From a bacterium (GTDB taxonomy: Bacteria > Patescibacteriota > Microgenomatia > UBA1400 > UBA12108), in contig JAZDDW010000003.1 of NCBI GenBank assembly GCA_043809365.1, positions 1-56,576 of the forward strand: a stretch of DNA of 56,576 bases, read 5' to 3'. The first letter of the stretch is position 1. The number at the start of each line of letters is the position of its first letter. Under the pieces are notes generated by a model. That model was not told the origin of the DNA and did not search any database. It saw only the letters and a program-made list of their open reading frames with translations. This document shows, piece after piece, positions 1 through 56,318 of this stretch. A program made the translations under genes and the position numbers.

Positions 1-1023
1 AAAAAAGCTCTGATTGTCAGCCCCTACTTAGATCATCTGGGGGGAGGGGAGCGCTACATGCTCTCGGTAGCCTCAGTGCTGGAGTCACTTGGTCACGACA
101 TTTATTTTGCCTGGGACAATCTCGAAGAAATTTATACTCTCTCGAATATGCTCGGCATTCACTTAAACAATTCTCACCTAGACCCCTCAATAAAAAAATT
201 GTACATTGGTCATAGACCATTGGCCATGTTCCTTGCTACCCGTCCCTACAATGTAGTCGTGTACTTATCCGATGGTTCAATCCCGCTCCTCGGGGGCAAG
301 CACAATCTCCTTCATATGCAGGTTCCCTTTCACGGGGTAGGAGGCAAATCCTGGCAAAATCAACTCAAAAAACGACTCATCTCAACTGTGCTCGTCAACT
401 CTCATTTCACCAAGCAAATCATTGATACTGAATTTGGGCTCAACTCAACCATTCTCTATCCACCTGTCACCCCAATCAAGTCTAGCCCCAAAGAAAAACT
501 CATTTTGTCCGTTGGCCGCTTTGAGCCGTCTCTCAACACCAAGCATCAAGACGTTTTAATTGAGGCTTGGCGTGCTCTCTCCTCACAATTGCCGGGATGG
601 AAGCTAATCTTGGCTGGTGCTACCAGTAGTGAAGACTGGGTTAATCATCTACGCAAACTCGCCGAAGGGCTCCCCATCGAATTTATTATTAATGCTGGCT
701 ATGATGAACTCTGTAAGCTGTATGCCGTAAGCCAAATATATTGGCACGCCGCTGGCTACCAAGTAGACGAAACAAAAAATCCCGAACTCACCGAGCACTT
801 TGGGATCAGCACGGTCGAAGCAATTTCTGCCGGATGTGTCCCTCTCGTTGTCCCCGTAGGAGGTCAAAAAGAAATTGTACAAGACCCTGCTCTGCACTGG
901 GCAACTATCGAAGAATTAATCACCAAAACTATCTGGCTCTCCCAAAATCCGCAAACTATTCAGCTTGACATCTCTTCCTATTCAGTCGAGAATTTTACCG
1001 AGCAACTCAAAAACATACTATGA
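1..1023 (+). CDS. Glycosyltransferase family 4 (GT-B fold), 5' end outside window
   Basis: Frame 1 is open from nt 1 (KKALIVSPYLDHLGGGERY precedes the first ATG at 58), so the start is upstream of the window. C-terminal EHFGISTVEAISAGCVPLV is the GT4 E-x7-E region. ATGA overlap with the next gene. Confidence 0.8.
   Translation, partial: KKALIVSPYLDHLGGGERYMLSVASVLESLGHDIYFAWDNLEEIYTLSNMLGIHLNNSHLDPSIKKLYIGHRPLAMFLATRPYNVVVYLSDGSIPLLGGKHNLLHMQVPFHGVGGKSWQNQLKKRLISTVLVNSHFTKQIIDTEFGLNSTILYPPVTPIKSSPKEKLILSVGRFEPSLNTKHQDVLIEAWRALSSQLPGWKLILAGATSSEDWVNHLRKLAEGLPIEFIINAGYDELCKLYAVSQIYWHAAGYQVDETKNPELTEHFGISTVEAISAGCVPLVVPVGGQKEIVQDPALHWATIEELITKTIWLSQNPQTIQLDISSYSVENFTEQLKNIL
204..231 (+). repeat. 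Heptad array I (CAT phased every 7 bp, 4 units)
   Basis: CATTGGT CATAGAC CATTGGC CATGTTC, with CAT at 204, 211, 218 and 225. Inside the GT4 gene, read as YIGHRPLAMF. Confidence 0.9.
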
Positions 1024-2276
1024 CTATTAAACAAATTATCACTTCAAAAATATTTTTGTTCGGACTCTTGATCCGATTACTACTTATGCCCTTCACCGGT
1101 CACTGGGATATCCGGGGGATTAATTTTGCAGTCTACAACCTCCCCTTTAAAGGTATCACCAATGTTTACGAAGTAGCCGCAAGTGGCCCAGTTGATTACG
1201 CCGTCAATGTCAATTTTGGGCGTGACTACTTTATCTATCCTCCACTTACCTACTTTACTCTGGGAGGAGTCATGACCGCTCTCAAACCATTCTATGGCGG
1301 TGAGTTTGTCCGCTGGATAGAAGGATATGGTAACGATCTCCTCTCCGTCATTACTCATCCCCACGTTTGGCGCTATCTCTTTTTAATGAAGATACCATAT
1401 CTGTTATTTGATTTTTTGGCGCTCTTTTTTCTCTTACGTTTTTTCTCCAAAGAGTCTGAGCAAAAGCTCGCTCTCAAATACTGGTGGCTCAATCCAATCG
1501 TGATCTATTTGCCTTACGTGTGGGGTCAATTTGATATTATCCCAACCGCCCTGATGTTAGTTGGAGTTTGGTTGGGAAGTAAAAATAAACCCTACACTTG
1601 TGCACTGTTATTTGGTTTGGCGGCGTCATTTAAAAATTATCCTCTCTTACTTTTACCCTTCTTAGCAGTGATCTTGGGCAAAAATCTGTGGCAGATGGCT
1701 AAACTTTTCTTTGTCGGGCTCTTGCCCTTTATTCTCACTACCATGCCATTTTGGTCTCACGCTTTCTTTCGCAGTACTGTCCTCTTCTCCTGGCAATCAC
1801 AGAAGATGTTGGATTTTATGTGGGCCATCGGCGGGTTTGATGGAGTCTACCCCTTCTTTATTGGTTATGCTCTCATTTTCTTGTGGACTGCTTACAAGCT
1901 TCGCGGCAAATTATCTTCGCTCTCTACTCCCATGGTCATGATCCTCCTCTGGTATTATGCCACTACCAACTTCCATCAACAGTGGTTTATGTGGATCATT
2001 CCTTACCTAGTAATCGCCGCTGTTCGCGATGCTCGCTTACGCCTTATCGGCCTGTGGGTAATTGGTTTGTTCTTTTTCCGCCTCTTAGAAATCCAAGCCA
2101 ATGTTACCAATGAGCTCTTGATTTGGCTTGCTCCCGCCTTTGACGATCTCCCTAAATCGCGCTATCTTTTGAGTCTCGCCTACGACATCAATCGCCTACG
2201 TAATCTCGTCAATAGTCTTTTTATGGGTACCGCCTTATTCTTGAGTTGGTATTTAGGGAGAGACAAAAATGCATAG
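1020..2276 (+). CDS. Polytopic membrane protein, GT-C-like (DUF2029/GT87-like candidate)
   Basis: 418 aa, hydrophobic throughout. First-loop pattern HWDIRG...DYFIYPPLTYF resembles DUF2029/GT87 enzymes (recognised from memory). ATGA coupling to the upstream GT4. Confidence 0.55.
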   Translation: MTIKQIITSKIFLFGLLIRLLLMPFTGHWDIRGINFAVYNLPFKGITNVYEVAASGPVDYAVNVNFGRDYFIYPPLTYFTLGGVMTALKPFYGGEFVRWIEGYGNDLLSVITHPHVWRYLFLMKIPYLLFDFLALFFLLRFFSKESEQKLALKYWWLNPIVIYLPYVWGQFDIIPTALMLVGVWLGSKNKPYTCALLFGLAASFKNYPLLLLPFLAVILGKNLWQMAKLFFVGLLPFILTTMPFWSHAFFRSTVLFSWQSQKMLDFMWAIGGFDGVYPFFIGYALIFLWTAYKLRGKLSSLSTPMVMILLWYYATTNFHQQWFMWIIPYLVIAAVRDARLRLIGLWVIGLFFFRLLEIQANVTNELLIWLAPAFDDLPKSRYLLSLAYDINRLRNLVNSLFMGTALFLSWYLGRDKNA

Positions 2277-2799: not shown

Positions 2800-2800
2800 C

Positions 2801-4171: not shown

Positions 4172-5071
4172 ATGTATCAACCCAAAGTCAGCATTGTCAT
4201 CCCCAGTTGGAACAGTGAAAGTCAGCTCAAACAAAATTTGCCCCATGTCTTCCAAGCCGCCGCCAAGGTCAAGGCAGAGATTGTGGTTGTGGATGATGCC
4301 AGTGCGCATGACTTGTCAGCCGTCTATCTCCGTTCCCTGGGTTCCAAAATCCGCTTCTATGCCAATCCGGAGAATGGGGGGTTTTCCTATACCGTCAATC
4401 GGGGGGTCAAACTCGCCAAAGGGGATATCGTCATCCCCCTAAACACCGACGTGCGCCCCTCCCCAGACTGTTTTGCGAATTGTCTCAAACAGTTTTCTGA
4501 TCCCTCTGTTTTTGCCGTGACTTTTAATAGTGGTGAGGCTTGGGCAGGGGGTGGGTGGGAAGGTGGTCTCCTCCAGCACGCCAAAGTCGAGCCCACTAAG
4601 GAGAATATCAAATTAACTAACCCTAGTCTCTGGGCCTCAGGTGGCCAAGCCGCCTTTGACCGCCAGAAATGGTTGAGTCTGGGGGGGATGGATCTTATGT
4701 ATAAACCTTTCTACTGGGAAGATGTGGACTTGGGCTACCGTGCCTGGAAAAGGGGATGGCGGATCGTCTGGGATCCCCAGTGTAAATGTGTTCACGATCA
4801 CCCAAAGAGTGTGATTGCCAGTAATTTCACTTCTGAATTTGTGAAAGCTACCGCTCAACGTAACCAATTCCTTTTTGTCTGGAAAAATATTCATGAATCA
4901 AGTCTATTCTGGTCTCACCTCTTCAAAATCCCCAGCTTTATCAAAAACTATCCTAGACCATTTTTCGCCGCACTCGCCTTGCTCCCGCAAGCTCTACGTG
5001 GACGCCACATCGAAAAACTCGCCTCTACCTGCAGTGATATGAAGGTTCTATCCCTATGGCAAAACCACTAG
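4172..5071 (+). CDS. Glycosyltransferase family 2
   Basis: VSIVIPSWNSE...IVVVDDASAHD...NTD and WEDVDLGYRAW motifs typical of GT2 (GT-A fold). Confidence 0.85.
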   Translation: MYQPKVSIVIPSWNSESQLKQNLPHVFQAAAKVKAEIVVVDDASAHDLSAVYLRSLGSKIRFYANPENGGFSYTVNRGVKLAKGDIVIPLNTDVRPSPDCFANCLKQFSDPSVFAVTFNSGEAWAGGGWEGGLLQHAKVEPTKENIKLTNPSLWASGGQAAFDRQKWLSLGGMDLMYKPFYWEDVDLGYRAWKRGWRIVWDPQCKCVHDHPKSVIASNFTSEFVKATAQRNQFLFVWKNIHESSLFWSHLFKIPSFIKNYPRPFFAALALLPQALRGRHIEKLASTCSDMKVLSLWQNH

Positions 5072-6861
5072 TTAGTGTCATCATCGTCAACTACAACGCA
5101 GGTCAATTTCTCGCTCGATCGGTCAAGTCCGTAAGCAATTTTCCTGGTGCAGAAGTTATTGTGATCGACAATTCTCCCCCCAATCCCAATCTTGGTTTTA
5201 GTCGAGCAGTCAATCTTGGGGCGGAAAAATGTCATGGTGAATATATTTTTCTCTTGAACCCCGATACTTCTGTAAGCAAAACTGCCCTTGCCAGGATGAT
5301 AACCACAGTCAGGTCCTACCACAATCGTGCGATCATCGCCCCCGCGCTCGTTAATCCAGATGGCACTCCCCAAGCATCTTGTTACCGTCCCCAAACCATT
5401 GGCAACGCAGTCAAAGAATATTGGTTCAACATCAAGGGTGCCTATGGCAAGTACTTGCCAGCAGGTAAATCTCTCCGTCGTGTCCATGCCGCGGTGGCCG
5501 CAGCTTGGCTCATTCCCCGCGCTGTCTGGGAGGAACTGGGTGGATTAAGCCCTCGGTTCTTTCTCTATTTTGAAGATCTCGATATGTGTGACCGCGCGGG
5601 GCATGCTGGTATCCCCGTGATCTACGATCCGCGTGCAAAGGTCATTCACACCCACGGCGTCTCTTCCCGGACCAACCCCATTGTGCTCAAGTTATTTACC
5701 GATTCGGCTTGGGAGTATCACGGACGCCTCAAGAAAATCCTCATTGATTTGATTATCCATGCGCGTGATTTATTTGTTCCGCCTGTCTCTCCGAAAAAAA
5801 CGCTCGGGATTATTCTCCTCTATTCCCTTTTTGTCCTTGGGGTTACTGCGCTTGGGTATTTCTTACTTCCCATGCGCTATGCTCCATCTAGCGCTATAGC
5901 CAGTTTTTATCATCGCAACTTTTTGCTTTGGAGCTGGGCCAACTTTGACGGCGCTCACTATCTAAATATTGCCGTTAATGGTTACCAAACTATTCTGGGT
6001 CAATCCGAATATGCCTTTTTCCCGCTCTTCCCGCTTCTTATAAATTTAGTCAGTAAAACTGGTTTAGATCTTTATTTATCCGCACACCTCGTGAGTTTGC
6101 TCTCTTCAATCGGTTTTATCGTTGTCTTGTTAAAATGGGTGTCAAGCTACCTAAAGAATCCACTTACCTTATTATGGCTCGTATTATTATCTCCGGGCGC
6201 AATTTTTCTTTCCGCTATCTACACCGAACCATTATTTTTGTTTCTCACCGTCCTTACCTTTTATTTTGCCGATAGGGGAGAATCAGGCAAAGCGGTCTTA
6301 ACGACAGCTCTTGCCACAGCGACTCGGATTAATGGTATTTTTCTCGTGTTGTTTTTACTGTTTAAGTTCCGCCGTTCCCTCCTCCCAATCCTTGGGCTCT
6401 CTGGCTTATTTGCCTACATGACTTACCTCTATTTCCAAACAGGGAGTGCCCTCGCTTGGTACTCTGCTCAGTCTGGTTGGGGCAAAGCCAACCCCACAGC
6501 TCCCTGGATCACGCTCGGCAATTACTTTCGCGCGCTCACCTTTGAATTTATTCCCGACTTAACTCACCTGGTTGTCTTAATCGAAGTAATAGTTACTACT
6601 ATTTTTATCTATCTTCTCATTCGTTTTTGGCGGCAAACTAAACTGGATTCTGCTTACAAATATTATGCCCTCGCTACCCTAGCTCTGCCACTCTCCACCG
6701 GTTCTCTCGGTTCTATGCCCCGTTTTTCTCTGACTCTCTTCCCGCTTTTTCTCATGATCCCCATACTCCCTCGCACGTTGCGCATTGTCCATTGGTCATT
6801 GTTCATTGTCATGAGTATAATCGGTATCATCTTGTTTACTCGGGGGTATTGGTATGCTTAA
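5056..6861 (+). CDS. Fusion: N-terminal GT2 domain + C-terminal PIG-V-like (Mannosyl_trans2-like) polytopic membrane domain
   Basis: N-terminal VSVIIVNYNAGQFL...VIDN...FEDLDMCDRA (GT2). From about aa 250 it is polytopic, with WANFDGAHYLNIAVNGYQ...EYAFFPLFPLL, the PIG-V/GPI-mannosyltransferase-2-like signature. Paralogous to 14279-15271. Confidence 0.7.
   Translation: MAKPLVSVIIVNYNAGQFLARSVKSVSNFPGAEVIVIDNSPPNPNLGFSRAVNLGAEKCHGEYIFLLNPDTSVSKTALARMITTVRSYHNRAIIAPALVNPDGTPQASCYRPQTIGNAVKEYWFNIKGAYGKYLPAGKSLRRVHAAVAAAWLIPRAVWEELGGLSPRFFLYFEDLDMCDRAGHAGIPVIYDPRAKVIHTHGVSSRTNPIVLKLFTDSAWEYHGRLKKILIDLIIHARDLFVPPVSPKKTLGIILLYSLFVLGVTALGYFLLPMRYAPSSAIASFYHRNFLLWSWANFDGAHYLNIAVNGYQTILGQSEYAFFPLFPLLINLVSKTGLDLYLSAHLVSLLSSIGFIVVLLKWVSSYLKNPLTLLWLVLLSPGAIFLSAIYTEPLFLFLTVLTFYFADRGESGKAVLTTALATATRINGIFLVLFLLFKFRRSLLPILGLSGLFAYMTYLYFQTGSALAWYSAQSGWGKANPTAPWITLGNYFRALTFEFIPDLTHLVVLIEVIVTTIFIYLLIRFWRQTKLDSAYKYYALATLALPLSTGSLGSMPRFSLTLFPLFLMIPILPRTLRIVHWSLFIVMSIIGIILFTRGYWYA
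6783..6812 (+). repeat. Heptad array A (4 units + 1 off by one)
   Basis: CATTGTC CATTGGT CATTGTT CATTGT CAT, with CAT at 6783, 6790, 6797, 6804 and 6810. At the 3' end of the GT2-PIG-V fusion, about 45 nt upstream of the next start. Confidence 0.85.
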
Positions 6862-38294: not shown

Positions 38295-38301
38295 AACAAT
38301 C

Positions 38302-39159: not shown

Positions 39160-39160
39160 C

Positions 39161-40909: not shown

Positions 40910-40919
40910 AATCTCTAAA

Positions 40920-41663: not shown

Positions 41664-41669
41664 GCGTAT

Positions 41670-41675
41670 AGTATA
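41670..41675 (-). promoter_or_regulatory. -10-like box abutting a start codon (leaderless-type)
   Basis: TATACT on the minus strand, 6 nt before the start at 41663. Confidence 0.45.
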
Positions 41676-41695
41676 GACAAATCCAGCCAATTTGC

Positions 41696-41701
41696 TACAT
41701 T
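41696..41701 (+). promoter_or_regulatory. -10-like box abutting a start codon (leaderless-type)
   Basis: TACATT, 6 nt before the ATG at 41708. Confidence 0.35.
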
Positions 41702-41707
41702 TAACCC

Positions 41708-44515: not shown

Positions 44516-46068
44516 AAATACACTCCTATGCCGACTAATGTTATCAGGTTTCCAACTTTCTGCACAATAGGCGCCTCAAATTTAATTTCCAATACCTGCT
44601 CACCCTTTTTGACACGGCAACCAATCAGTCCCGAGTCATCTATATGTGAGAGCCTTCGCTTTGTCACAAAACAATTCTCCGGTATTACCCATCCAGGGAA
44701 AAATGCTGTATTGATCCTCACCACTCCCTCTCCCTCACTTACAATTTTAAATTTTTTGTAATTTGATCTATCGCTCAACTGCTCTATGGATCCATGGCCC
44801 CCAATAAACTCGGCTCTCTTCCCAAAAGGTGCACTATCCCGAGTGGCTCTGGTACGCGGGGCATATTCTCCGTAACTATCCCCTGTCTCCCCCGCAAAAA
44901 ACTCCTCACCCTTATCCCAATACTTATCAGTGTGGGCAATCGGCAGTGACTGTAACACCAATATCACAGTTATGACACAAACAACTACATTTGAGATTTG
45001 CCATTTAAGATTTGAGATTATTTTTGCTCCTATCCATGCAGTTGCAAATACCAAACACATCAGTAGTCGCCACGGAAAATCAATAATTGTTGACAGATGT
45101 AGAACTTTGTATACCGGTAGTGAGATAGGTAGGATGAAAAACAAAACTAACAAGCTGGTACCAACTAAGTATCGCAGTTCACTCTTTTTTTGGCGTAGTG
45201 CCACCCACGCCCCTGCCAAGAGTGCTCCCCATTGTACGCCTCCCAACTCAAAGGACATCCCATCACCACCACCCGGTAACGAAACTCCGTATCCCCACGG
45301 AGAGCGGATTAATTGGTTGAGCGTCGGGAACATCAGGAGTGTATCCGACAACTCCGGGCTGTAATAGGTGTATTGGGTGAGCGCGAGGGTGGGGATTAGG
45401 TTAAATGCCGACAGTAGTAGCCCTAGTCCAAACGAGACTCCAAACAGCGTGAGTCGCTCAATTCTTTTGGCTTTGTCTCCTACCCATAAGCAGTATCCGA
45501 GGAAAAAAACCGAAAAAGCCGCCGAAGCTAGGGGATGTGTCAAAAATAATCCCGCCCACCCTACGGTCAGAAGAGGTAGGAACGAGCGGGTAAATCCCCA
45601 GATTAGTAGTGGGGGGAACACAAATGCCAGCGACTCCCCGAGCGCTCCCCGTACATAAATATCCACCAGGTGATAGGGCGCCAAAGTATAGATCAGACTA
45701 CCAATCCATGCGGCGCTCATCCCAAATCGTTTGCGTAATGCCAGATACATAAGTACTCCCGATAACACATAAGACAGACCCAAGGAAAACTTATAGCTAT
45801 CAAAATAGGACAGTCCCAGGCGATGCCAGATCTCTCCTAGCATATAAGGCAGTTGGTAATTGAGCATCATGACCGGTGACCCAATCCCTCCCAGTACTTC
45901 CTTTGCCCACATGGGAGGGAACTGGCCATCGAGTAGCGCTGTATGGTAGCCGATGGCGCGGGAGATATGGGGATTAGAGTCGTGCATCATGGGAAGGCCA
46001 AGTTTTGCCAAGTCCCGCATAAAGAAAGAGAGTAGTAAACCAAGACATATCCCCAGCAACCATTTCAT
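44452..46068 (-). CDS. PTPS-related-type polytopic membrane protein (GT-C-like), paralog of 9227-11539 without the methyltransferase
   Basis: MHDSNPHISRAIGYHTALLDGQFPPMWAKEVLGGIGSPVMMLNYQLPYML parallels the N-terminus of the 9227 gene. Same TM-bundle + beta-rich domain + terminal TM layout. Confidence 0.6.
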   Translation of the reverse strand: MKWLLGICLGLLLSFFMRDLAKLGLPMMHDSNPHISRAIGYHTALLDGQFPPMWAKEVLGGIGSPVMMLNYQLPYMLGEIWHRLGLSYFDSYKFSLGLSYVLSGVLMYLALRKRFGMSAAWIGSLIYTLAPYHLVDIYVRGALGESLAFVFPPLLIWGFTRSFLPLLTVGWAGLFLTHPLASAAFSVFFLGYCLWVGDKAKRIERLTLFGVSFGLGLLLSAFNLIPTLALTQYTYYSPELSDTLLMFPTLNQLIRSPWGYGVSLPGGGDGMSFELGGVQWGALLAGAWVALRQKKSELRYLVGTSLLVLFFILPISLPVYKVLHLSTIIDFPWRLLMCLVFATAWIGAKIISNLKWQISNVVVCVITVILVLQSLPIAHTDKYWDKGEEFFAGETGDSYGEYAPRTRATRDSAPFGKRAEFIGGHGSIEQLSDRSNYKKFKIVSEGEGVVRINTAFFPGWVIPENCFVTKRRLSHIDDSGLIGCRVKKGEQVLEIKFEAPIVQKVGNLITLVGIGVYLWILSVSFYLHITNVKRLSKT

Positions 46069-46090: not shown

Positions 46091-47416
46091 ATGTTTTATA
46101 TCCTAGGACTTGCGGCTGTCTTGCGACTCGTGCTCATCAACCAATCTCTGTGGCTCGACGAAGCCATCGAAGCTTTGGCGCTCCGTGGTCATTTCGGCCC
46201 CATTCTCTCTTACGCTCTCTCTGACTTTCAGCCTCCCCTCTATCACCTCCTTGGCCTCGCTTGGACTCGCCTCTTTGGTTTTTCTGAAATAGCGCTTCGT
46301 ACTCCCTCGCTCCTCGCTGGCCTCGTGCTTGTATATTTCGTCTTTAAGCTCGGGGAGTTGATCGGTACCAAGAAACTCGCCATCATAGCTAGTCTCCTAG
46401 TTGCCACCAATCCCTTGCTGATTTATTATTCGGGGGAAGGTCGTACCTATATCCTCACTACTCTGCTCGTGACTGCCAGTTTCTACTACCTTGTACTCTC
46501 CTTGCGCCGTCGCACTCTCTCATCCATTATTCATTATTCATTATTCATCACCCTGACTCTCTGGACCTCTTATCTCTCTTGGTTTGTTGCGCTCTCTCAG
46601 GGAATCTATCTTATCTGTAAAAAGCGCTGGGATCTACTTGCCGCCCTCGCTTTGGCAGTCTCTTCCCTCCTCCTCTGGCTACCTTCACTACTACGATCTC
46701 TGGCAATCGGGGTAGGGGATGCCAGAACTATCCCTGGGTGGGGACAAGTGGTAGGCGGGACCTCCCTCAAAGCCCTCGCCCTGACTTGGGTCAAAATGAA
46801 TATTGGTAGAATCAGTTTTGACAATAAATTACTCTACGGTCTCATTGTCAGTCTTATTGGATTATTACATTTATCCATTTTTCGTAAGATGCGCCCATTG
46901 ACCATTGACCATCGCCCATTGCTCATTTGGCTCATTGCACCGGTTGTCCTCGCAAGCATTGTCTCGGTCTGGGTGCCAATTTATAGCTACACTCGTGTAC
47001 TATTTATTGTGCCTGCGTATTTGCTCTTGCTCTCACTGGCTCTTGTCCAGTTGCCTATTCGCTACACGGCACTCGTTCTTTCTCTTAATCTTCTCTTCCT
47101 TTCCCTTTTTTGGTTTAATCCTCGCTTCCATAGAGAAGATTGGCGCAGTCTCACCAGCTATCTCAATGCCCAAGAGGGGACTGTGGTCCTCCCTAGCCTC
47201 AAACAAGATGCTCCCTTTATCTACTACAATCTGACCTTGCCCCTACAATCAACGCTTGATCCAGTAGATACTAAGCATGTTTACTATGTCAAATATGTCG
47301 AAGATACCTTTGATCCTGGACATCTCGGTCCTGCCAATCTTGCTCGCCTCGGTTATACTATTAGTAGTCAGCGTACCTACCCCGGGATTGCCGTAGATAT
47401 TTATGCAAAAAAATAA
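46091..47416 (+). CDS. GT39/ArnT-like membrane glycosyltransferase
   Basis: LRLVLINQSLWLDEAIEAL...FQPPLYHLL...ALRTPSLLAGLVLVYFVFKLG. Contains two heptad arrays. Confidence 0.65.
   Translation: MFYILGLAAVLRLVLINQSLWLDEAIEALALRGHFGPILSYALSDFQPPLYHLLGLAWTRLFGFSEIALRTPSLLAGLVLVYFVFKLGELIGTKKLAIIASLLVATNPLLIYYSGEGRTYILTTLLVTASFYYLVLSLRRRTLSSIIHYSLFITLTLWTSYLSWFVALSQGIYLICKKRWDLLAALALAVSSLLLWLPSLLRSLAIGVGDARTIPGWGQVVGGTSLKALALTWVKMNIGRISFDNKLLYGLIVSLIGLLHLSIFRKMRPLTIDHRPLLIWLIAPVVLASIVSVWVPIYSYTRVLFIVPAYLLLLSLALVQLPIRYTALVLSLNLLFLSLFWFNPRFHREDWRSLTSYLNAQEGTVVLPSLKQDAPFIYYNLTLPLQSTLDPVDTKHVYYVKYVEDTFDPGHLGPANLARLGYTISSQRTYPGIAVDIYAKK
46525..46552 (+). repeat. Heptad array G (4 units, 3 identical)
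   Basis: CATTATT CATTATT CATTATT CATCACC, with CAT at 46525, 46532, 46539 and 46546. Confidence 0.9.
46896..46930 (+). repeat. Heptad array C (5 units)
   Basis: CATTGAC CATTGAC CATCGCC CATTGCT CATTTGG, with CAT at 46896, 46903, 46910, 46917 and 46924. Read as RPLTIDHRPLLIW. Confidence 0.9.
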
Positions 47417-48518
47417 TGTCCCGATCCCATCAACCATTAAACATCGACCATTAACCATTGCTATCGATGTTTCTCAAATGGCTTACTCCGGTACTGGCGT
47501 CGCTCGGTATGTTTCTGGACTAACCAAGGCTCTCTTGCTCTCCGGCTCAAGCCATCAATTTATCTTTTACGCCGGAGCGCTCCGTCAACGTTCTTTCTTT
47601 AGCAAACTCTCCCTCACCTCGCCCTGGAATCGTGCCGCTTGGCGTATTCTCCCTCTCCCCCCCAAAATAGCCAGTTCTGTGCTGGGGTCACTCCCCATCC
47701 CCTTTGAGTGGTTAACTGGTTCCGCCGATCTCCTTCACTCTTCTGATTGGGTCGAGCCATCTTCTCGTCTCCCCATGTGTACGACCATTCATGATTTGGT
47801 TTTTCACCAATATCCTTCGACTGTAGATCCACTAATTCGCCGCGCCCAGGAGGGGCGTCTGGTGAGACTTACTCACAACCACACCCAGATTATCGCCGAT
47901 TCAGAGAGTACAAAAAATGATCTTATGGAGATTTATAATTTTGCCCCATCTCGTTTAAATGTCATCTATCCAGGTGTGGAATCTCAGTATGCCCCCCAAT
48001 CGAAAAAAGAAATTGATCGAGTGAAAAGAAAGTACAATTTACCTGATCAATACATACTTTCCTTGGGTACCCAAGAGCCTCGCAAAAATATCACAAGACT
48101 TATCGAGGCAATCGAAGGTCTCAATTTTCCTCTTATCATCGTAGGGAAATATGGTTGGGGAGAGCAAACACAATCGCTTGGGTTTGTCCCTGAGGTGGAC
48201 CTACCTGGCCTCTACTCAGGCGCCACGGTTTTTGCCTACCCCTCCCTCTACGAGGGGTTTGGTTTCCCGGTAATCGAGGCGATGGCTTGTGGTGCTCCCG
48301 TTGTGACCTCAAACGTCTCTTCACTACCAGAGATCGCGGGTGATGCCGCGGTTCTGGTAGATCCAGAAGACATCTCCTCTATTCGTGCAGGTATAGAAGA
48401 GGCCATCTCCACCCGCTCCAAATTAATCGGTTTGGGTTTGATTCAAGCCCAAAAATTTACTTGGAAACATTGTGCCCAGCAAGTTCTGGAGGTTTATGAC
48501 AAAATCATTGGCCATTAA
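47403..48518 (+). CDS. Glycosyltransferase family 4
   Basis: IAIDVSQMAYSGTGVARYVSGL...[28 protein letters not shown]. Overlaps the upstream gene by 14 nt. Confidence 0.85.
   Translation: MQKNNVPIPSTIKHRPLTIAIDVSQMAYSGTGVARYVSGLTKALLLSGSSHQFIFYAGALRQRSFFSKLSLTSPWNRAAWRILPLPPKIASSVLGSLPIPFEWLTGSADLLHSSDWVEPSSRLPMCTTIHDLVFHQYPSTVDPLIRRAQEGRLVRLTHNHTQIIADSESTKNDLMEIYNFAPSRLNVIYPGVESQYAPQSKKEIDRVKRKYNLPDQYILSLGTQEPRKNITRLIEAIEGLNFPLIIVGKYGWGEQTQSLGFVPEVDLPGLYSGATVFAYPSLYEGFGFPVIEAMACGAPVVTSNVSSLPEIAGDAAVLVDPEDISSIRAGIEEAISTRSKLIGLGLIQAQKFTWKHCAQQVLEVYDKIIGH
47428..47462 (+). repeat. Heptad array D (5 units) at the 5' end of a GT4 gene
   Basis: CATCAAC CATTAAA CATCGAC CATTAAC CATTGCT, with CAT at 47428, 47435, 47442, 47449 and 47456. 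Read as PSTIKHRPLTIA. Confidence 0.9.
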
Positions 48519-49617
48519 CCATCGATCATTGACCATCGGCATAGATATCAACGAAGCCAATGTCAAAGAGCGTGTCGGCACCGGCCAATATTGTTACCAT
48601 GTTCTAAAACATAGTAACACCCGCACTGATATCGATTTTCACCTTTATCATCGAGATGATCTCCAAGAAGACCTCCCTCCCGAATCTGCCCACTGGCACT
48701 ACCACCGCGTCAAGCCCTTTCGGGGTTGGCTTCGTTTCGGTTTACCGTTTTACTTATTAACTCACTCCCAAAATGATATTTTCTGGTCACCCGCCCACTA
48801 CATGCCGGTTTATACGGGGTGTCAAAGCGTAGTCACCATTCACGACCTAGCCTACGAATACTTCCCCGAGCTATTCCTGCCCAGTGACTTGTACAAACTC
48901 AAAACCTGGACTCGCGTTGCTACCAAGCAGGCAACCAAAGTCATTGCGGTCTCCGCCGCGACCAAGCATGATCTAGTCAAGCTTTACGACCTTCCAAAAG
49001 ACAAAATCACCGTGGTTCACAACGGTTACGACTCCAACGTTTTCAACATCACGGATAAAGCCGATACTAAGATTCTTAAATCATATCTCTTAAATCCAAA
49101 ATCCTACATTCTTTTCCTCGGTACCATTCAGCCTCGTAAAAATGCTCTCAAACTAGTCCAAGCTTTCCATTTGCTCCGTCAGTCTGGTTACAAGGGAAAA
49201 CTGGTCATTGCCGGGCGAGTTGGCTGGCTGGCTGATGAGACACTTTCAGTCATCAAAAACTCACCAGAAGCCCAAGATATTGTGCTCACCGGCTATGTGA
49301 GCGATAGCACTCGCAAAGCCCTCTACACTTATGCAGATGTCTATGTCCTGCCCTCATTTTACGAGGGATTTGGCGTGCCAGCCATCGAGGCTATGGCTTG
49401 CGGCGCCCCGGTGGCGGTGGCCAATAACTCTTCTCTCCCTGAGGTAGTGGGCAATGCGGGCTTACTTTTTAACCCCGCCGACCCCGCCGATATTGCCCGC
49501 GCCATCCTCGAAATCAAAAAAGACCGTTCCACCTGGGTCAAAAAAAGTCTCGCCCGCGCCAAGCATTTCTCTTGGGAGAAGTGTGCAGAGGAAACGCTCT
49601 CTATTCTGCTACAATAG
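48496..49617 (+). CDS. Glycosyltransferase family 4 (tandem paralog)
   Basis: ATG at 48496 chosen (the track start at 48472 is GTG). [19 protein letters not shown]...[28 protein letters not shown]. 23-nt overlap with the upstream gene. Confidence 0.85.
48506..48540 (+). repeat. Heptad array E (5 units) across a GT4/GT4 gene overlap
   Basis: CATTGGC CATTAAC CATCGAT CATTGAC CATCGGC, with CAT at 48506, 48513, 48520, 48527 and 48534. The unit at 48513 supplies His-stop (CAT TAA) of the upstream gene. Confidence 0.9.
49610..49615 (+). promoter_or_regulatory. -10-like box abutting a start codon (leaderless-type)
   Basis: TACAAT, 6 nt before the ATG at 49622. Overlaps the TAG stop of the upstream gene. 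Confidence 0.45.
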
Positions 49618-51138: not shown

Positions 51139-52772
51139 AAATAAATCTTCTCCTCATCTTATCCGGCGTCTTACTTATTGTAATCCCTGCTTACCCCAAG
51201 CTTCCTCTAGCCGATCTCATGGAGGGCTATATTGTCCGACTGCGCCTCGAAGATATCTTGGTCTTGTTCACTTTTCTTGTATATCTTGTCCAACTCTTGC
51301 GCCGTAAAATCACTTTCCCCAAGAATATTGTCGCCAAATTTATCGTTGCCTACCTTGTGTTTGGTTTTCTCTCTACTCTTAGTGCTCTGTTTATCACCCA
51401 CACCGTTCCCCTCATACAGCAACACATCTTTAAACTCTACTTGCATTTTTTCCGTCGGGTCGAGTATTTTTCTCTCTTCTTCATCGCCTACTCCGCCATC
51501 CGTACTCGGAAAGACATCTTGACTCTCCTCAAAATCAGTGGCATTACTCTCCTTGCCGTGGTGATCTATGGTTATGGCCAAAAATATTTCTTGTGGCCAG
51601 CTTTCTCCACCATGAACCGCGAGTTCAGCAAGGGGGCACGACTTTATTTGACCGCTAACTCACGCGTCATGAGTACCTTTGCCGGTCACTACGACTATGC
51701 CGCCTATCTCATGATGTCCCTTTCCCTGATTGTGGCTTATATCTGGACCAATAAAAAATGGTGGTCCAACGTCTTAATCATTGGCTTTGGTCTCGCGGTT
51801 TACTGGTCGCTCATCTTAACCGCTTCGCGCACCTCCTTTATCGGTTATCTCGTGGGGATCTCCGTTGTGGCCCTGATACTGCGTCAACTCCCAACAAAAA
51901 TACATGTCTTTTGGCGCTGGCTGGGAGTCATGGTAGTTAGTTTTGCCATCATGCTCACCATGGGAGATTTGTCAGATCGATTTTTCCAGGTTATCCGCAA
52001 TCCAGATCTCATTATTCATGATATTACCCAAGTAACCCCAATCAAAAGAGAGTGGATAGAGAACCCCCTTTCTCTCTTTAGCTCTTCCCTAAGTTCCTAT
52101 GGCGACAAATTATTAGCCATGCGTCAAAAATTAAATTCCAGTCTCGCCACCCCTCCACCCAACTCGCTCTCTACTGACGAAATTGAAAAAGTAGCCGCCC
52201 TCTCTGACGCCCCTCCCTCTACCACTCCCCCACTCCCACCTGACGTCTCCTTGGCCGAAGATGCCTTCCGTAAAGAGCAAGAAGCTTTGCAAAATGCTCC
52301 TTCGCCTTCCCCTGGCTCCGGTTACTCCCCCAACGCTCTCAAATATGGACTCTCTGTAGCGATTAGACTTGATGCTCTTTGGCCAAGAGCCAGAGACGCC
52401 TTCTGGCGTAATCCCTTACTTGGTTCCGGGTATTCCACGCTTACTAAAGTGGAGAACGAAGAATTTACCCAGGCCGAATCTACCGACAACGATTACTTGC
52501 GCATGCTCGGGGAGACCGGACTACTAGGAACCCTTACCTTCCTCGCGATTCCTCTTCTTGTAGCCTTCTACGGGTACCGTCTCGCTCACGATCCACGGGA
52601 AAAACACTTTAGCTTTTTCGGGTTAGCGATGATCGGAGTTGTCATTAGTCTCTTGGTCAACGCTACATATATCGATGTCTTTGAATCCAGTAAGATCGCC
52701 TATCTGTTCTGGATGATGTGCGCGCTTGTGGTGCGTGCCAACGAATTGAGGCCTCATGACGAAGCTACTTAG
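51135..52772 (+). CDS. Wzy_C / O-antigen-ligase-like polytopic membrane protein (ligase, polymerase or O-oligosaccharyltransferase)
   Basis: TASRTSFIGYLVG and DNDYLRMLGETGLLG match the Wzy_C family pattern. A Pro/Ser-rich insert of about 60 aa lies at 52147-52335. Confidence 0.7.
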   Translation: MKINLLLILSGVLLIVIPAYPKLPLADLMEGYIVRLRLEDILVLFTFLVYLVQLLRRKITFPKNIVAKFIVAYLVFGFLSTLSALFITHTVPLIQQHIFKLYLHFFRRVEYFSLFFIAYSAIRTRKDILTLLKISGITLLAVVIYGYGQKYFLWPAFSTMNREFSKGARLYLTANSRVMSTFAGHYDYAAYLMMSLSLIVAYIWTNKKWWSNVLIIGFGLAVYWSLILTASRTSFIGYLVGISVVALILRQLPTKIHVFWRWLGVMVVSFAIMLTMGDLSDRFFQVIRNPDLIIHDITQVTPIKREWIENPLSLFSSSLSSYGDKLLAMRQKLNSSLATPPPNSLSTDEIEKVAALSDAPPSTTPPLPPDVSLAEDAFRKEQEALQNAPSPSPGSGYSPNALKYGLSVAIRLDALWPRARDAFWRNPLLGSGYSTLTKVENEEFTQAESTDNDYLRMLGETGLLGTLTFLAIPLLVAFYGYRLAHDPREKHFSFFGLAMIGVVISLLVNATYIDVFESSKIAYLFWMMCALVVRANELRPHDEAT

Positions 52773-54168
52773 TCTCGTTCTCATCCTGGGTCTATTTATT
52801 TGGGTCAGAACTTATCGGCTCAATACTCCCCTAGCTGATTGGCACAGTTGGCGTCAAGCTGACACGGCGGCCGTGGCTCGTAATTTTATTCAAGAGAGAT
52901 TTAACTTGCTCTATCCCCAGTCTGATTCGCTTTGGTCTCTCTCTCCTACCCAGCTCCCCAATCCCCATCGTTATTTTATGAACGAATTTCCGCTCTACAA
53001 TGCAACTGTTGCTCTCATCTACCAATATGTCGGTATTAACCATGTTTACGGACGTCTCGTTAGTATCGCGGTCTCTGCCCTCGGGGCACTCTACCTCTTT
53101 CTCTTAGTCCAAAAGTTACTCGGCTTCCCCACCGCCATTACTTCGTTACTCTATTACTCCTTGCTCCCCTTTAACATTTATTACAACAGGGTATTCATGC
53201 CCGATCCCACTTTTGCGGCACTCTCGATTATCACTCTCTATTACACTGTTTCTTGGACTGCCTCGCGCAAACTCTCAGATGGAATCTTGATGATGGTTAC
53301 CTTTGCCCTGGCAACCCTAGTCAAGCCTTATGCAATCTTTATGGCACTCCCCATGGTCTATTGGGTCATCCGCAATCGTGGACTCGAAGTTTTCCGCCAC
53401 ATCAGTACCTACCTCCTTGTCCTTGGCGCTATTCTGCCTCTCGTCCTCTGGCGTTATCATTTGAGCCTGCACCCAGAGGGATCATTTGCGACCGGCTGGT
53501 TACTGAACGGGGACAAAATCCGCTTTACCGGCGCCTTCTTCCGTTGGCTCATCTTTGATCGCTTGAACCGACTGGTCTTTGCTACCGGGGGATTTGTTCT
53601 GTTTATGGTAGGCCTATTTACCGCTCATCTTAAGAAGAATACTTCTCTTTTTTTCGTCTGGACGCTTGCCATCTTTCTCTACTTTACAATTTTTGCTAAA
53701 GGTAATGTCAATCATGATTACTACCAATTACCGATTGTTGCCCCTGGCGTAGTTCTTTGTGTGATTGGAGCTACCAACCTCATTAATCATGCAAAAACTC
53801 GTTTCTCACGATGGCTCAACAGCTCTCTCGCTCTCTCGCTCTTAATCATCTCCCTCGCCTTCGGTTGGTTTGAAGTGCGCGGATACTTTAACATTAACAA
53901 TCCAGCGATTGTTGCCGCGGGTCAGGCGGTAGATCAACTCTTGCCAGAGGATGCGGTGGTGATTGCGCCCTATCAGGGCGATCCTGCTTTCCTTTATCAA
54001 ACCAACCGCAACGGCTGGCCTATCGGCGGCAATATCGAGGAGCGGATGGCAAATGGTGCCACTTACTATGTGACAACTAGTCGCGACGGTGAATATCAAG
54101 AACTTAAGAACAAATACACGCTCCTATTTGAAAACGACACCTACTCTATTATCCAACTGGTACCATAA
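52756..54168 (+). CDS. GT39/ArnT-like membrane glycosyltransferase
   Basis: LADWHSWRQADTAAVARNF...EFPLYNATVALIY is the ArnT/PMT_2-like N-terminus. 470 aa, polytopic. Confidence 0.7.
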   Translation: MTKLLSLVLILGLFIWVRTYRLNTPLADWHSWRQADTAAVARNFIQERFNLLYPQSDSLWSLSPTQLPNPHRYFMNEFPLYNATVALIYQYVGINHVYGRLVSIAVSALGALYLFLLVQKLLGFPTAITSLLYYSLLPFNIYYNRVFMPDPTFAALSIITLYYTVSWTASRKLSDGILMMVTFALATLVKPYAIFMALPMVYWVIRNRGLEVFRHISTYLLVLGAILPLVLWRYHLSLHPEGSFATGWLLNGDKIRFTGAFFRWLIFDRLNRLVFATGGFVLFMVGLFTAHLKKNTSLFFVWTLAIFLYFTIFAKGNVNHDYYQLPIVAPGVVLCVIGATNLINHAKTRFSRWLNSSLALSLLIISLAFGWFEVRGYFNINNPAIVAAGQAVDQLLPEDAVVIAPYQGDPAFLYQTNRNGWPIGGNIEERMANGATYYVTTSRDGEYQELKNKYTLLFENDTYSIIQLVP

Positions 54169-54170
54169 CT

Positions 54171-54196
54171 TTATGACTTTACGACGTTATGACTTT
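54171..54196 (+). repeat. Direct repeat TTATGACTTT x2 (16-bp period) in an intergenic gap
   Basis: TTATGACTTT at 54171-54180 and 54187-54196. It also reads as three 8-bp units TGACTTTA CGACGTTA TGACTTTC. Lies in the 36-bp gap before the ATG at 54205. Confidence 0.8.
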
Positions 54197-54204
54197 CAAC
54201 TACT

Positions 54205-55392
54205 ATGAAAGTCCTCATGCTTACACCATATCTTCCGTACCCACTTGTCTCCGGTGGCCAGATCCGCACCTACAATCTCCTCAAACATTTATCTCTTCAT
54301 CATGACATCACCTTGTTTGCGCTCATCAAAGACGATAGTGAGAGGCAGTACCTGTCCGAATTGAAGAAATATTGTCGCCACATAGAGTTCTTCAAACGTA
54401 CCAAAAACCCCTTTGTGCTTCGCAACATCCTACTGGCCGGCTTTTCTCCATATCCTTTTGTGGTAACTCGAAACCTCCCCCTCGGCATGAAACGCTCTGT
54501 CCAAGCCGAGTTGGCTCGCTCGCGTTACGATCTCATCCACGCCGAGACCTTTTACATGATGCCCAATATTCCAGGCACCCTAGTCCCCATCATCTTAGCC
54601 GAGCAAACTATCGAGTACCTGGGGTATCAAGATTATATGAAAAAGTCCAATCTAATTCTTCGCCCCATCTTGGCAATCGATGTGATGAAAATAAAGTATT
54701 GGGAGCGTTATTTCTGGCGCAAAGCCGACAAATTGATCACCATGTCGGAGGAAGACAAAACCTTTATCGAACGCGAACTGGGTGAGTCCACGAGTACGAG
54801 CGTGGTCGCCAATGGAGTCGATCTTAAATTTTTCTCTGAAGTCAAAAAACGCTTGCCTGTTGACCCCACCGTGCTCTTTGTCGGGACTTTCAAGTGGCTT
54901 CCCAATATCGAAGCTGTAGAAGAAATTGTGCACAAAATCTGGCCTCTTATTTTGAATCGACTCCCGATGGCCAAGCTCAAAATCGTAGGTTTCTCCCCAA
55001 CCGCCAAAATTCAAGCTTACGGGGAAGACAAGAGTATCGAGGTTTTGGGTGGCATCGATGATATCAGAGACGCCTTCGCTTCCTCTCACATCCTCCTTGC
55101 CCCCATCAGGAGTGGCAAGGGAACTAGGTACAAGGTCTTGGAAGCCATGATTACCGGAACTCCAGTTGTGGCTACCACGCTGGCTGTCGAAGGACTTGAT
55201 CTGCAAAACGGTCAAGAAGTGCTCATCGCCGATACTTCCTCTGGCCTGGCAGATGCTGCCGTTACGCTCCTCACAGACCGATCACTGCAGCTCAAGTTAA
55301 GTAGGGCAGGGGAGGCTATTGTACGTCGCGGCTATAGCTGGGATATCATCGCCAAGGACTTGGACAAAGTCTATAAAGAGTTTAAATCATGA
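54205..55392 (+). CDS. Glycosyltransferase family 4
   Basis: MKVLMLTPYLPYPLVSGGQIRTYNLLKHL...GKGTRYKVLEAMITGTPVVAT. Confidence 0.85.
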   Translation: MKVLMLTPYLPYPLVSGGQIRTYNLLKHLSLHHDITLFALIKDDSERQYLSELKKYCRHIEFFKRTKNPFVLRNILLAGFSPYPFVVTRNLPLGMKRSVQAELARSRYDLIHAETFYMMPNIPGTLVPIILAEQTIEYLGYQDYMKKSNLILRPILAIDVMKIKYWERYFWRKADKLITMSEEDKTFIERELGESTSTSVVANGVDLKFFSEVKKRLPVDPTVLFVGTFKWLPNIEAVEEIVHKIWPLILNRLPMAKLKIVGFSPTAKIQAYGEDKSIEVLGGIDDIRDAFASSHILLAPIRSGKGTRYKVLEAMITGTPVVATTLAVEGLDLQNGQEVLIADTSSGLADAAVTLLTDRSLQLKLSRAGEAIVRRGYSWDIIAKDLDKVYKEFKS

Positions 55393-56318
55393 AACCAAAT
55401 CATCGACCATCGACCATCGACCATCGACCATTAATCAGTATTATTATTCTCAACTACAATGCCAAAGAATTCTTGCGGCAAACCCTCAAATCAGTCCTCT
55501 CACAAAAAGGTCTCCAAATTGAAACTATTGTAGTCGACAATAACTCGACTGATTCCTCCCATGCCATGGTGAGCAAAAAATTCCCGAGTGTGAAATGGGT
55601 AGGGCGCGATACCTCCATCGGTTTTTCTTCCGGGAATAATGCAGGCTTGCCTGCCGCCCACGCTGATACGATCCTCTTCCTCAATCCCGATGCCAGTTTT
55701 ACGAAACCCAACGATCTCAAGCGCTGCTACGACAAAATCTGGAGCGATGAGACAATCGGAGCCTTGACTGCCCGAGTCAATCTCGTCCTCACCGGCGGGA
55801 TCGATGAAACTTGTCATCGTGGTTTCCCCACTCCTTGGGCAGCCCTGACCCATTTTTTTGGTTTCTCCAAGTTGTTCCCCAACATCCCACTCTTTAATCA
55901 ATATACCAAGAGGTACTTGGGGTATACAGAGGAGCATGAAATTGATGCGGTCGGCGGGATGTTTATGCTCATGCGTCGATCAGTCGGGGAGCAAGTTGGC
56001 TGGTGGGACGAAGACTTCCCCCTATACGGTGAAGATTTGGATTTCTGCTATCGCCTCCATGAGGCTGGCTATCGCAATCTCTACTATCCCCAAGTTACCG
56101 TACTGCACTACAAGGGTGTCTCCACCGGGATGAGCAAGCAAAGCGCCAAGGTCACCACCGCCAAAAAAGAAACCATCCGCCATGTCAAGGGCTGGTCGAT
56201 TCAGGCCATGCGTTTGTTTTACGACAAACACTATAAGCAAAAATACCCCTTCTTCATCACCTGGCTCGTCCACCTCGGGATTCGCCTTATGTACTTCCGC
56301 CGTGTGACCCTGGCGTAA
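55389..56318 (+). CDS. Glycosyltransferase family 2 with heptad-repeat-encoded N-terminal extension
   Basis: ISIIILNYNAKEFL...VVDNNSTDSS...GFSSGNNAG...LNPDA...GEDLDFCYR. ATGA overlap with the upstream gene. Confidence 0.85.
   Translation: MKPNHRPSTIDHRPLISIIILNYNAKEFLRQTLKSVLSQKGLQIETIVVDNNSTDSSHAMVSKKFPSVKWVGRDTSIGFSSGNNAGLPAAHADTILFLNPDASFTKPNDLKRCYDKIWSDETIGALTARVNLVLTGGIDETCHRGFPTPWAALTHFFGFSKLFPNIPLFNQYTKRYLGYTEEHEIDAVGGMFMLMRRSVGEQVGWWDEDFPLYGEDLDFCYRLHEAGYRNLYYPQVTVLHYKGVSTGMSKQSAKVTTAKKETIRHVKGWSIQAMRLFYDKHYKQKYPFFITWLVHLGIRLMYFRRVTLA
55401..55435 (+). repeat. Heptad array F (4 perfect CATCGAC + CATTAAT) at the 5' end of a GT2 gene
   Basis: CATCGAC x4 (55401-55428), then CATTAAT. 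Read as HRPSTIDHRPLI, beginning 12 nt after the ATG. Confidence 0.95.

Follow-up and report, generated by a model that had tools for sequence, protein, structure and literature searches.

The stretch of DNA analysed here (hereafter the window) comprises 56,576 nt of contig JAZDDW010000003.1 from the metagenome-assembled genome of an uncultured Microgenomatia bacterium of the UBA1400 lineage, and consists of long, tightly packed open reading frames (ORFs), nearly all of which are assigned by Pfam to glycan biosynthesis (GT2, GT4, GT87, PMT/PMT_2, PIG-V-like, Wzy_C, ABC-2 exporter, epimerases, aminotransferase, pyruvyl transferase, sulfatase and deacetylase families). In the protein collection, the nearest homologues carry the names Microgenomates, Collierbacteria or Woesebacteria. 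Within these genes the triplet CAT recurs at an exact spacing of 7 nt, with 4–5 triplets per array, in nine arrays that are numbered 1 to 9 along the window (Table 1). An earlier note on this DNA had listed the nine arrays and their positions, and all of them are present. The host families that it named (GT4, GT2 with PIG-V, PMT_2/GT39-like and ABC-2 permease) were also recovered, but its description of these hosts as unrelated does not extend to function, since the whole window is a glycan-biosynthesis region.

Arrays with at least four phased CATs number nine on the plus strand of the window and zero on the minus strand, and none arose in any of 300 Markov simulations (orders 1, 2 and 3, 100 runs each), which places them beyond chance, as had been claimed. 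Among all non-homopolymer triplets and periods from 4 to 12, CAT at period 7 gave nine arrays and the runner-up combination two. Scored over four units with a position weight matrix of the unit, the nine arrays reach at least 25, compared to at most 7.2 at every other position on both strands. A self-match scan that was blind to CAT found an excess at lag 7 alone among lags 4–12, and its top four lag-7 matches were four of the nine arrays. The arrays are 28–42 nt long, tandem and non-palindromic, without conserved ends; CAT is invariant and position 7 partly so, with positions 4–6 varying between units.

The unit follows the pattern CAT-[T/C]-[G/A]-N-[C/T], and the commonest of the 40 units in the window are CATCGAC (5), CATTGAC (4) and CATTAAC (4). 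Relative to CATCGAC, the variants at positions 4 and 5 differ by transitions; the perfect arrays are made of this unit, which lacks stop codons in all of its frames. Because it is stop-free in all frames and dominates these arrays, CATCGAC is likely the master unit, from which the T and A variants would have been derived as transitions; the earlier note had assumed the reverse, with T as the default and C introduced to avoid a stop, which we regard as the less likely direction. Perfect tracts in the window are limited to array 9 (4.4 copies) and array 5 (3.4 copies), the remaining arrays being imperfect. Single units outside the arrays are neither enriched nor strand-skewed, except for CCATCGA, which is mildly raised on the plus strand (11 observed vs. 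4 expected). The arrays are therefore not a signal of the Chi or FtsK-orienting polar sequence (KOPS) type, and an oriented single motif of that kind was ruled out.

Each of the nine arrays is in sense orientation within long open frames of plus-strand genes, in agreement with the earlier note, and since three units make 21 nt, the arrays are read through as HRP(L/S)TID-type heptads, in cyclic permutations of H-R-P-(L/S)-T-I-D, as it had also recognised. From array to array, the peptides differ widely (IIAHSALTIN, SIIHYSLFIT, HRPSTID). Where CAT is read as a His codon, seven arrays have CATCG or CATAG at that unit, and the other two have CATTGG or CATTAT. Position 4 is T in 6 of 21 His-read units compared to 35 of 59 other units (Fisher P = 0.02), and this rarity is consistent with a stop-avoiding filter, that is, with the ORF-preserving selection that had been proposed. 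At the GT4/GT4 junction, array 8 provides both the TAA stop of ORF 47403–48518 (CAT TAA, 48513–48518) and the N-terminal extension of the next GT4 (ATG at 48496).

We assessed whether the periodicity belongs to the DNA or to the encoded peptide by resampling synonymous codons for each array peptide under the codon usage of the window, and the observed CAT phasing had a probability of 0.0002–0.015 per array. Syntenic loci of relatives were fetched via homologues, and all loci compared are glycan regions chosen by homology. For array 6, at the site termed E2 in the PMT_2 gene 46091–47416, the sample consisted of the window and seven relatives, six of which were fetched on similarity of the E2 peptide and the seventh (L122) for its GT4 N-terminus. 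At least four phased CATs are kept in five of these relatives (codon-resampling P = 0.0003–0.006 each), and thus in six of eight lineages with the window. In the six intact lineages, codon third positions occupied by the C or A of CAT are invariant, first positions vary and change the amino acid (xCA being CCA, GCA or TCA, and xxC being ACC, GCC or CTC), and third positions that fall on heptamer positions 4–6 vary freely. The E2 peptide of L210, RPLLITHHPLFIW, is unlike RPLTIDHRPLLIW, yet the DNA reads CATTACT CATTACT CATCACC CATTATT CATTTGG.

The unit-by-unit register of E2 is identical in the six lineages, with the His-frame unit always carrying C at position 4, so slippage has not reshuffled the tract since these lineages diverged. 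Third-position identity over the whole gene is 0.35–0.42 among these genomes, and similarity in the 20 codons flanking the array on either side does not exceed that of the remaining gene. Recent transfer or unsaturated divergence is therefore not the explanation, and recent recombination spreading the E2 array is not supported by these flanks. The alignments show phased CAT persisting where synonymous sites are otherwise saturated, with positions 4–6 and amino acids free to drift. Since amino acids change while the CAT bases stay, a protein motif is not a sufficient explanation, and the earlier proposal of a DNA-level, ORF-resident repeat family agrees with the codon resampling, with the retention of CAT and with the placement of the arrays as indels described below. 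The two remaining lineages, L208 and L211, encode a related E2 peptide through other codons and have lost the phasing; both have higher G+C and carry no other array in 13.7 and 2.9 kb, respectively, and their E2 segments look like decayed arrays in lineages without the family. A peptide conserved with unrelated codons, which the earlier note had named as the pattern that would refute it, is thus seen in two of eight lineages, as apparently decayed arrays, and the other six keep phased CATs.

Alignment to orthologues, the check that had been suggested, shows the arrays to be DNA-level insertions of 4–6 units. Array 9 forms a clean insertion of ~33 nt of near-perfect repeat (HRPSTIDHRPL), in that the GT2 encoded at 55389–56318 starts MKPN-HRPSTIDHRPL-ISIIILNYN compared to M.KPDVSIIILNYN in the orthologues of L204 and L121. 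Array 7 is placed between the conserved ATG (47403), which is the homologous start codon and overlaps the 3' end of the gene before it, and the first beta-strand (IAIDVSQ), giving the GT4 encoded at 47403–48518 the N-terminus MQKNNVPIPSTIKHRPLTIAIDVSQ; more than 100 among the 120 orthologues listed start with MKIAIDVSQ or a near variant, without the array segment. Arrays 5 and 6, at sites E1 and E2 of the PMT_2 protein, correspond to gaps in L121 and to other sequence in L204, and the E1 region is 7–10 amino acids shorter in L121. In an AlphaFold model of this protein (mean predicted local distance difference test score 92), both arrays are at inter-helix loops, E1 in the loop before and at the start of helix 143–157, and E2 in loop 265–271 and the start of helix 272–294. 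Taken over all hosts, the array sites are shown to be ones that tolerate extra residues: the stretch between a start codon and the first beta-strand, gene junctions, loops that connect membrane helices, and an interdomain linker.

Arrays 2 and 3 occupy different positions within paralogous PIG-V-like domains. ORF 14279–15271 has no Pfam match, but is paralogous to the PIG-V-like domain of 5056–6861, with 31% identity. The LPRTL similarity common to these two arrays consists of one or two degenerate units and is not flank. Array 2 ends 42 nt ahead of the ATG of the next gene (6854). Comparison of flanks between arrays found no pair with a common flanking sequence, terminal repeat or palindrome, so the array itself is the repeated element, and a larger mobile element carrying the arrays was ruled out on the same grounds.

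Across the whole set of loci, we counted 24 arrays on seven contigs at 13 distinct sites, with nine in the window and 15 in six relatives (five within 3 kb in L122, three in L206, two each in L205, L207 and L209, and one in L121). All 24 are on the sense strand of an open frame and in the ON frame. The single array of L210, an E2 orthologue, is extra to this count. There were no arrays in L123, L208, L211 or the 21 kb of L204, which is the closest relative (PMT_2 78% identical). Arrays at PMT_2 site E1 are also found in L122 and L206, with a partly phased version in L210, and arrays at site E2 occur in the same codon register in L122, L205, L207, L209 and L210, are decayed in L208 and L211, and are absent in L204, L121 and L206. 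The GT4 N-terminal site of array 7 is also occupied in L122 and L209, and the junction site of array 8 in L122. Sites new relative to the window are the interdomain linker of the second GT4 (L122, L205 and L206), the N-terminus of another GT2 (L206) and two gene junctions (L121 and L207).

For about 7 of the 13 distinct sites, there is a start codon within 75 nt, in most cases just upstream of the array, compared to ~14% expected from gene density. N-termini also tolerate insertions readily. On a neighbour-joining tree of 119 PMT_2 orthologues, the E2 array state is patchy and sister pairs differ. A single gain of the array is not supported by this distribution, which is compatible with losses, recombination and regain alike.

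Three further features were observed in the related loci. At ~8250–8290 of L206, between the PMT_2 stop and the TTG start of the GT4, a non-coding spacer is phased by heptamers (TTGTAAA TTGGAGT TTGTAAA TTGAAAA TTGCAAT); TTG is kept, CA is replaced by A-rich bases, and the spacer contains GGAG. From its letters, it looks like a degenerate, untranslated version of the junction array of the window, L122 and L209. At ~2867–2869 of L122, an in-frame TGA stands where the second GT4 of the window (48472–49617) has Trp (KLKTWTRV vs. KLKN*TRQ); this may reflect a sequencing error, local recoding or a nonsense mutation. Two GT4 genes of L204 (12352–13454 and 20185–21323) are called as split fragments of 153 + 137 and 212 + 142 amino acids, which suggests pseudogenisation in that array-free glycan locus.

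Table 1 CAT heptamer arrays of the window, and Fic, RhuM or Bro-N domain genes in the window and related loci.
Feature	Locus	Position	Strand	Units (5' to 3')	Host or setting	Read as
Array 1	Window	204–231	+	CATTGGT CATAGAC CATTGGC CATGTTC	GT4 ORF open from window start to 1023	YIGHRPLAMF
Array 2	Window	6769–6812 (phased CATs from 6783)	+	degenerate CCTCGCA CGTTGCG, then CATTGTC CATTGGT CATTGTT CATTGTCAT	C-terminal membrane segment of GT2 + PIG-V-like ORF 5056–6861	LPRTLRIVHWSLFIV
Array 3	Window	14762–14796	+	degenerate CCTCGAA, then CATTAAC CATCGTC CATCGCT CATTCTT	ORF 14279–15271	LPRTLTIVHRSFF
Array 4	Window	16770–16797	+	CATCGCC CATAGTG CATTGAC CATTAAC	ABC-2 permease 16393–17160	IIAHSALTIN
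Array 5 (site E1)	Window	46525–46552	+	CATTATT x3, then CATCACC	PMT_2/GT39-like ORF 46091–47416	
Array 6 (site E2)	Window	46896–46930	+	CATTGAC CATTGAC CATCGCC CATTGCT CATTTGG	ORF 46091–47416	PLTIDHRPLLIW
Array 7	Window	47428–47462	+	CATCAAC CATTAAA CATCGAC CATTAAC CATTGCT	GT4 47403–48518	
Array 8	Window	48506–48540	+	CATTGGC CATTAAC CATCGAT CATTGAC CATCGGC	GT4/GT4 junction	
Array 9	Window	55401–55435	+	CATCGAC x4, then CATTAAT	12 nt after ATG of GT2 55389–56318	
Fic/RhuM/Bro-N gene	Window	26954–28012				
Fic/RhuM/Bro-N gene	L121	2388–2939				
Fic/RhuM/Bro-N gene	L204	4669–5661				
Fic/RhuM/Bro-N genes	L205	10776–12687				
Fic/RhuM/Bro-N genes	L206	833–1807, 10458–11309				
Fic/RhuM/Bro-N gene	L208	5911–6744				

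Shorter or unrelated repeats were also seen in the window. Two-unit proto- or relic arrays of the CAT family are present on the plus strand near the 5' end of minus-strand genes, at 40763–40776 (CATTGGT CATCGTG) and 40947–40960 (CATCGAC CATCTCA). A weak period-7 tract at 44987–45019 (CATTTGA GATTTGC CATTTAA GATTTGA, 73% matches), on the plus strand within the minus-strand ORF 44452–46068, is a non-member by its weight-matrix score. A perfect 10-nt tandem repeat, ATCTTATATA x3, occupies 26923–26952 in the short gap just upstream of the Fic/MarR-domain gene 26954–28012, and an 8-nt tandem repeat, ACTTTATG, is present in 3.6 copies at 54165–54196, in the gap between PMT_2 52756–54168 and GT4 54205–55392. 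Genes with Fic, RhuM and Bro-N domains are interspersed at varying places in the otherwise syntenic glycan loci and may mark mobile or defence-related insertions.

The plus strand is C-rich throughout the window, with a GC skew of −0.06 to −0.25 in 2-kb bins, and this holds under minus-strand genes too (17839–20152, 29063–30007, 31459–41777 and 43829–46068). The same C-rich-strand bias is found in every related locus when oriented alike. A whole-chromosome G/C strand disparity has been described for UBA1400 Microgenomates (PMC7143001), and the window skew fits this description. The minus-strand genes of the examined loci, which make up ~28% of the sequence, contain no arrays in either orientation.

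Apart from codon periodicity, the tandem period that dominates in these Microgenomates loci is 7. In 728 kb of unrelated GT4 loci (distant loci with at most 42% identity, obtained from a metagenome contig scan with generic GT4 motifs), there were 30 arrays at lag 7 and 24 at lag 6, compared to 12 in total at lags 5, 8 and 9. L128 carries CATTATC/CATTCTC arrays that are insertions at other positions of a 31%-identical PMT_2 homologue. At 2786–2843 of L208, a different heptamer, TACTTAC/TACTTGC, is repeated ~8 times in the PMT_2 E1 loop and read as YLLLTTC x2, and this loop therefore seems to be a general hot spot for period-7 expansions. Heptameric simple sequence repeats (SSRs) are reported to be over-represented in bacteria, possibly via the polymerase footprint (PMC4692102). 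The dominance of period 7, together with runs of identical adjacent units, indicates that slippage is the likely source of the arrays. Slippage alone leaves unexplained why one unit is common to 13 sites and why only CAT is held fixed.

On balance, and with somewhat more confidence than doubt, we interpret the arrays as a lineage-specific, slippage-born family of heptanucleotide direct repeats that resides inside ORFs, passes an ORF filter and has its CAT phasing kept by selection at the nucleotide level. The arrays would be born and resized by slipped-strand replication, and selection would retain only frame-preserving versions without an in-frame TGA or TAA. The phased CAT (CAU in mRNA) would itself be under nucleotide-level selection, with the encoded HRPLTID-like peptide a tolerated by-product.

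What such selection might act on can be proposed only tentatively. HutP reads UAG-N4 repeats and TRAP reads (G/U)AG-N2-3 repeats; both are ring-shaped proteins whose operators lie in 5' leaders and control termination. The CAT arrays resemble these operators in having an invariant triplet at a fixed short spacing (7 nt for HutP), free spacer bases and a single strand. They differ in being located in coding sequence over many genes and not in leaders. An invariant triplet with free spacers, restriction to one strand and the loss of phasing in family-less lineages point to recognition of a single strand in a 7-nt register, similar to the proposal made for the TAACTGA repeats (PMC4679880). The leading candidate role is that of a CAT register recognised, on mRNA or on the non-template strand, by a multimeric binder of single-stranded nucleic acid. 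Such a binder might tune translation or coupling in long glycan operons, given that around half of the distinct sites have a start codon no more than 75 nt away. That phased CAU/CAT is in this way a dispersed cis-element of coding sequences, read in a 7-nt register and coordinating translation, coupling or transcription processivity across the very long glycan operons of these ultra-small bacteria, is a conjecture that we consider doubtful at present, with perhaps a minor share of the probability. Structured RNA was ruled out, as the arrays are predicted to be mostly unpaired and fold z-scores are near zero; Rfam covariance models likewise gave no match at the gathering threshold anywhere in the window. 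Over 90 nt, start regions gave weaker predicted folding with arrays (−5 to −17 kcal/mol) than in array-less orthologues (−12 to −26 kcal/mol), a comparison that is small in sample and confounded by composition.

Several observations weigh against selection on the phased CAT. The sense strand is the C-rich strand for every array and the C-rich bias spans both gene orientations, such that array orientation could be replication-related instead of transcript-related; because the two strands coincide for every array, RNA-level and replication-linked readings are not separable in these loci. Six internal arrays are in membrane segments or loops far from start codons, where a translational role is not obvious. 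We infer a function for the phased CAT from its conservation only, few lineages were compared, and all of them at glycan regions picked by homology. Independent gains that recurred at hot spots, and not ancient conservation, could underlie the patchy array state on the PMT_2 tree. Low-GC contigs among the distant GT4 loci (L124, L126, L128 and L141) carry mid-ORF heptamer arrays of many different units, several per contig (AAGCGCA, TAGCTAT, CACATCA, CTCGCAA, CCATTAT, TTTCCAA and others), a variety that fits a generic mutational process without function, and in-ORF heptamer arrays may be widespread in such low-GC genomes. Runs of identical adjacent units (array 9, array 5, L122 430 and L206 12353) are recent duplications and mark slippage as active, and slippage by itself could renew the periodicity.

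These last points are also what gives weight to the strongest rival, in which the arrays are functionless, slippage-born microsatellites of which only in-frame survivors are seen, with the periodicity renewed by slippage or ectopic conversion. Every sequence set examined has 7 as its dominant non-codon tandem period, the reported excess of heptameric SSRs in bacteria (PMC4692102) agrees, arrays occur at permissive sites only, are patchy among orthologues and have decayed in L208 and L211, and the E1 loop of L208 holds the unrelated TACTTAC repeat. Slippage or conversion would, however, homogenise whole units, yet only CAT and partly position 7 are invariant, and the unit-by-unit register of E2 is the same in six lineages. 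One unit at 13 sites is not expected from local seeds, which for E2 would be CATTTGG, and arrays of 4–5 imperfect units should slip rarely. We therefore view neutral microsatellites as possible, though not probable.

Switching of glycosyltransferases ON and OFF through gain or loss of 7-nt units in 5' arrays, as contingency loci that vary the surface glycan, would suit a unit length that is not a multiple of three and hosts that are classic targets as surface-glycan genes. Three window arrays (7, 8 and 9) and several in relatives lie 10–25 nt past GT2 or GT4 start codons, and array 9 is a perfect tract. The closest layout is the NeuO poly-psi tract, a 5' (AAGACTC)n variable number tandem repeat in a phage-borne capsule O-acetyltransferase, which is hypervariable with 2–93 perfect copies, translated in heptads and OFF unless the copy number is a multiple of three (PMC3046976). 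The likeness covers a heptanucleotide tract a few bases past the start codon of a glycan enzyme (arrays 7, 8 and 9), three units making one heptad, and a dispensable, probably disordered N-terminal extension. The CAT arrays differ in having 4–5 mostly imperfect units, in being always in frame and in occurring also mid-gene in membrane proteins, which accounts for about half of them. In contrast to hypervariable tracts, the orthologous arrays of deeply diverged genomes agree in unit number and register, and no length variants were seen, the 90% clusters of the products of 47403–48518 and 46091–47416 being single-member each. With all 24 arrays in the ON frame and orthologous tracts stable, phase variation of the NeuO type does not fit the data, and we consider it improbable.

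Two explanations appear very unlikely. One holds that the HRPLTID heptad is a conserved protein motif, a linker or interaction tag, with the DNA periodicity a side effect. It draws on the same heptad peptide being found in several glycan enzymes, on the related peptides with other codons in L208 and L211, and on the modulation of enzyme activity by the NeuO heptads, and is refuted as a sufficient explanation by the codon resampling, by the change of amino acids around fixed CAT bases, by the wide differences between array peptides and by the lack of the segment in most of the GT4 orthologues listed. A search of 5.8 billion proteins with synthetic (HRPLTID)6 gave three matches at E ≤ 10, the best with E = 0.05.

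The other, which we find just as hard to credit, sees the arrays as footprints of mobile elements, through 7-bp target-site duplications left behind when an element repeatedly inserts and excises, or as a tiny in-frame mobile insert. The same unit at many unrelated sites, its patchiness among orthologues and the clean insertions relative to close relatives are all compatible with this, and 7-nt duplications by transposons have been raised as a possibility for the TAACTGA repeats (PMC4679880). Against it, no flank, terminal repeat or palindrome is conserved around the arrays, single units show no enrichment, 0 of 39 Pfam-scanned ORFs match a transposase or integrase family, and the arrays are far smaller than known mobile elements. 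They resemble Rickettsia palindromic elements as DNA-level repeats in-frame in unrelated ORFs at permissive protein sites, but those elements are 100–150 bp long, palindromic and mobile-element-like, unlike CAT arrays of 28–42 nt with no shared flanks and no hairpin. Chance, or a by-product of base composition or codon usage, is refuted with near certainty in spite of a coding strand that is strongly C- and T-rich, as the Markov simulations gave no arrays, no other combination of triplet and period behaves alike and the same arrays are found in independent assemblies.

The earlier note knew of no described equivalent, but comparable systems exist, among them the NeuO tract. Heptamer direct repeats of TAACTGA are dispersed in Beggiatoaceae, Cyanobacteria and Bacteroidetes (MacGregor 2015, PMC4679880), in sets of 2–6 copies at many loci, with gene-biased orientation, many beside start codons and no predicted secondary structure; a few in-ORF cases at the protein periphery are read as a 7-amino-acid repeat, and a single-strand-binding post-transcriptional regulator (S1, Csp or CsrA) has been proposed (PMC4679880). 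Both families present one heptamer in short direct-repeat sets at many loci, here nine sets in 56.6 kb plus 15 in relatives, with 4–5 phased units per set, or 6 with the degenerate edge units in arrays 2 and 3. TAACTGA was not found in the unit set of the CAT arrays. TAACTGA repeats are overwhelmingly intergenic, with stops in all frames of the forward unit, whereas CAT arrays are all in ORFs, sense and read through, their orthologous copies are register-conserved across diverged genomes, and their host is a bacterium of the Candidate Phyla Radiation (CPR) with almost no intergenic space.

The short tandemly repeated repetitive (STRR) sequences of heterocystous cyanobacteria are likewise tandem 7-nt units dispersed around the genome, and CATTGGT is a circular permutation of STRR2 (TTGGTCA). 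However, only 2 of the 40 window units are CATTGGT, the dominant ones being CATCGAC, CATTGAC and CATTAAC. A genome contig scan for CATYRNY x4 followed by CAT returned many cyanobacterial CATTGGT, CATTAGT and CATTACT arrays, plus heptamer arrays of Bacteroidota, among the matches listed, and 97 of 133 arrays among these matches were outside long open frames. STRR arrays are longer and mostly outside long ORFs, in contrast to the CAT arrays, which are all in ORFs and have a Microgenomates host. Our literature search found no prior description of such arrays in the CPR lineage. The CAT family is an ORF-resident variant of the known dispersed heptamer repeats of bacteria.

Dispersed bacterial heptamer repeats have been known since 1990, but are mostly intergenic, fast-evolving and hard to study. 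The CAT family lies almost wholly inside genes, such that its orthologous copies can be aligned codon by codon; this coding context makes nucleotide-level constraint separable from protein-level constraint, and the functionality of heptamer repeats directly testable. For annotation, the family implies that repeats, and not functional features of the protein, can account for N-terminal extensions and loop inserts of CPR glycosyltransferases. If a single-strand binder does read the arrays, they would be a coding-sequence-resident counterpart of operators of the HutP/TRAP type, and if the arrays modulate the expression of surface-glycan genes, they would constitute a regulatory layer in organisms with apparently few conventional regulators.

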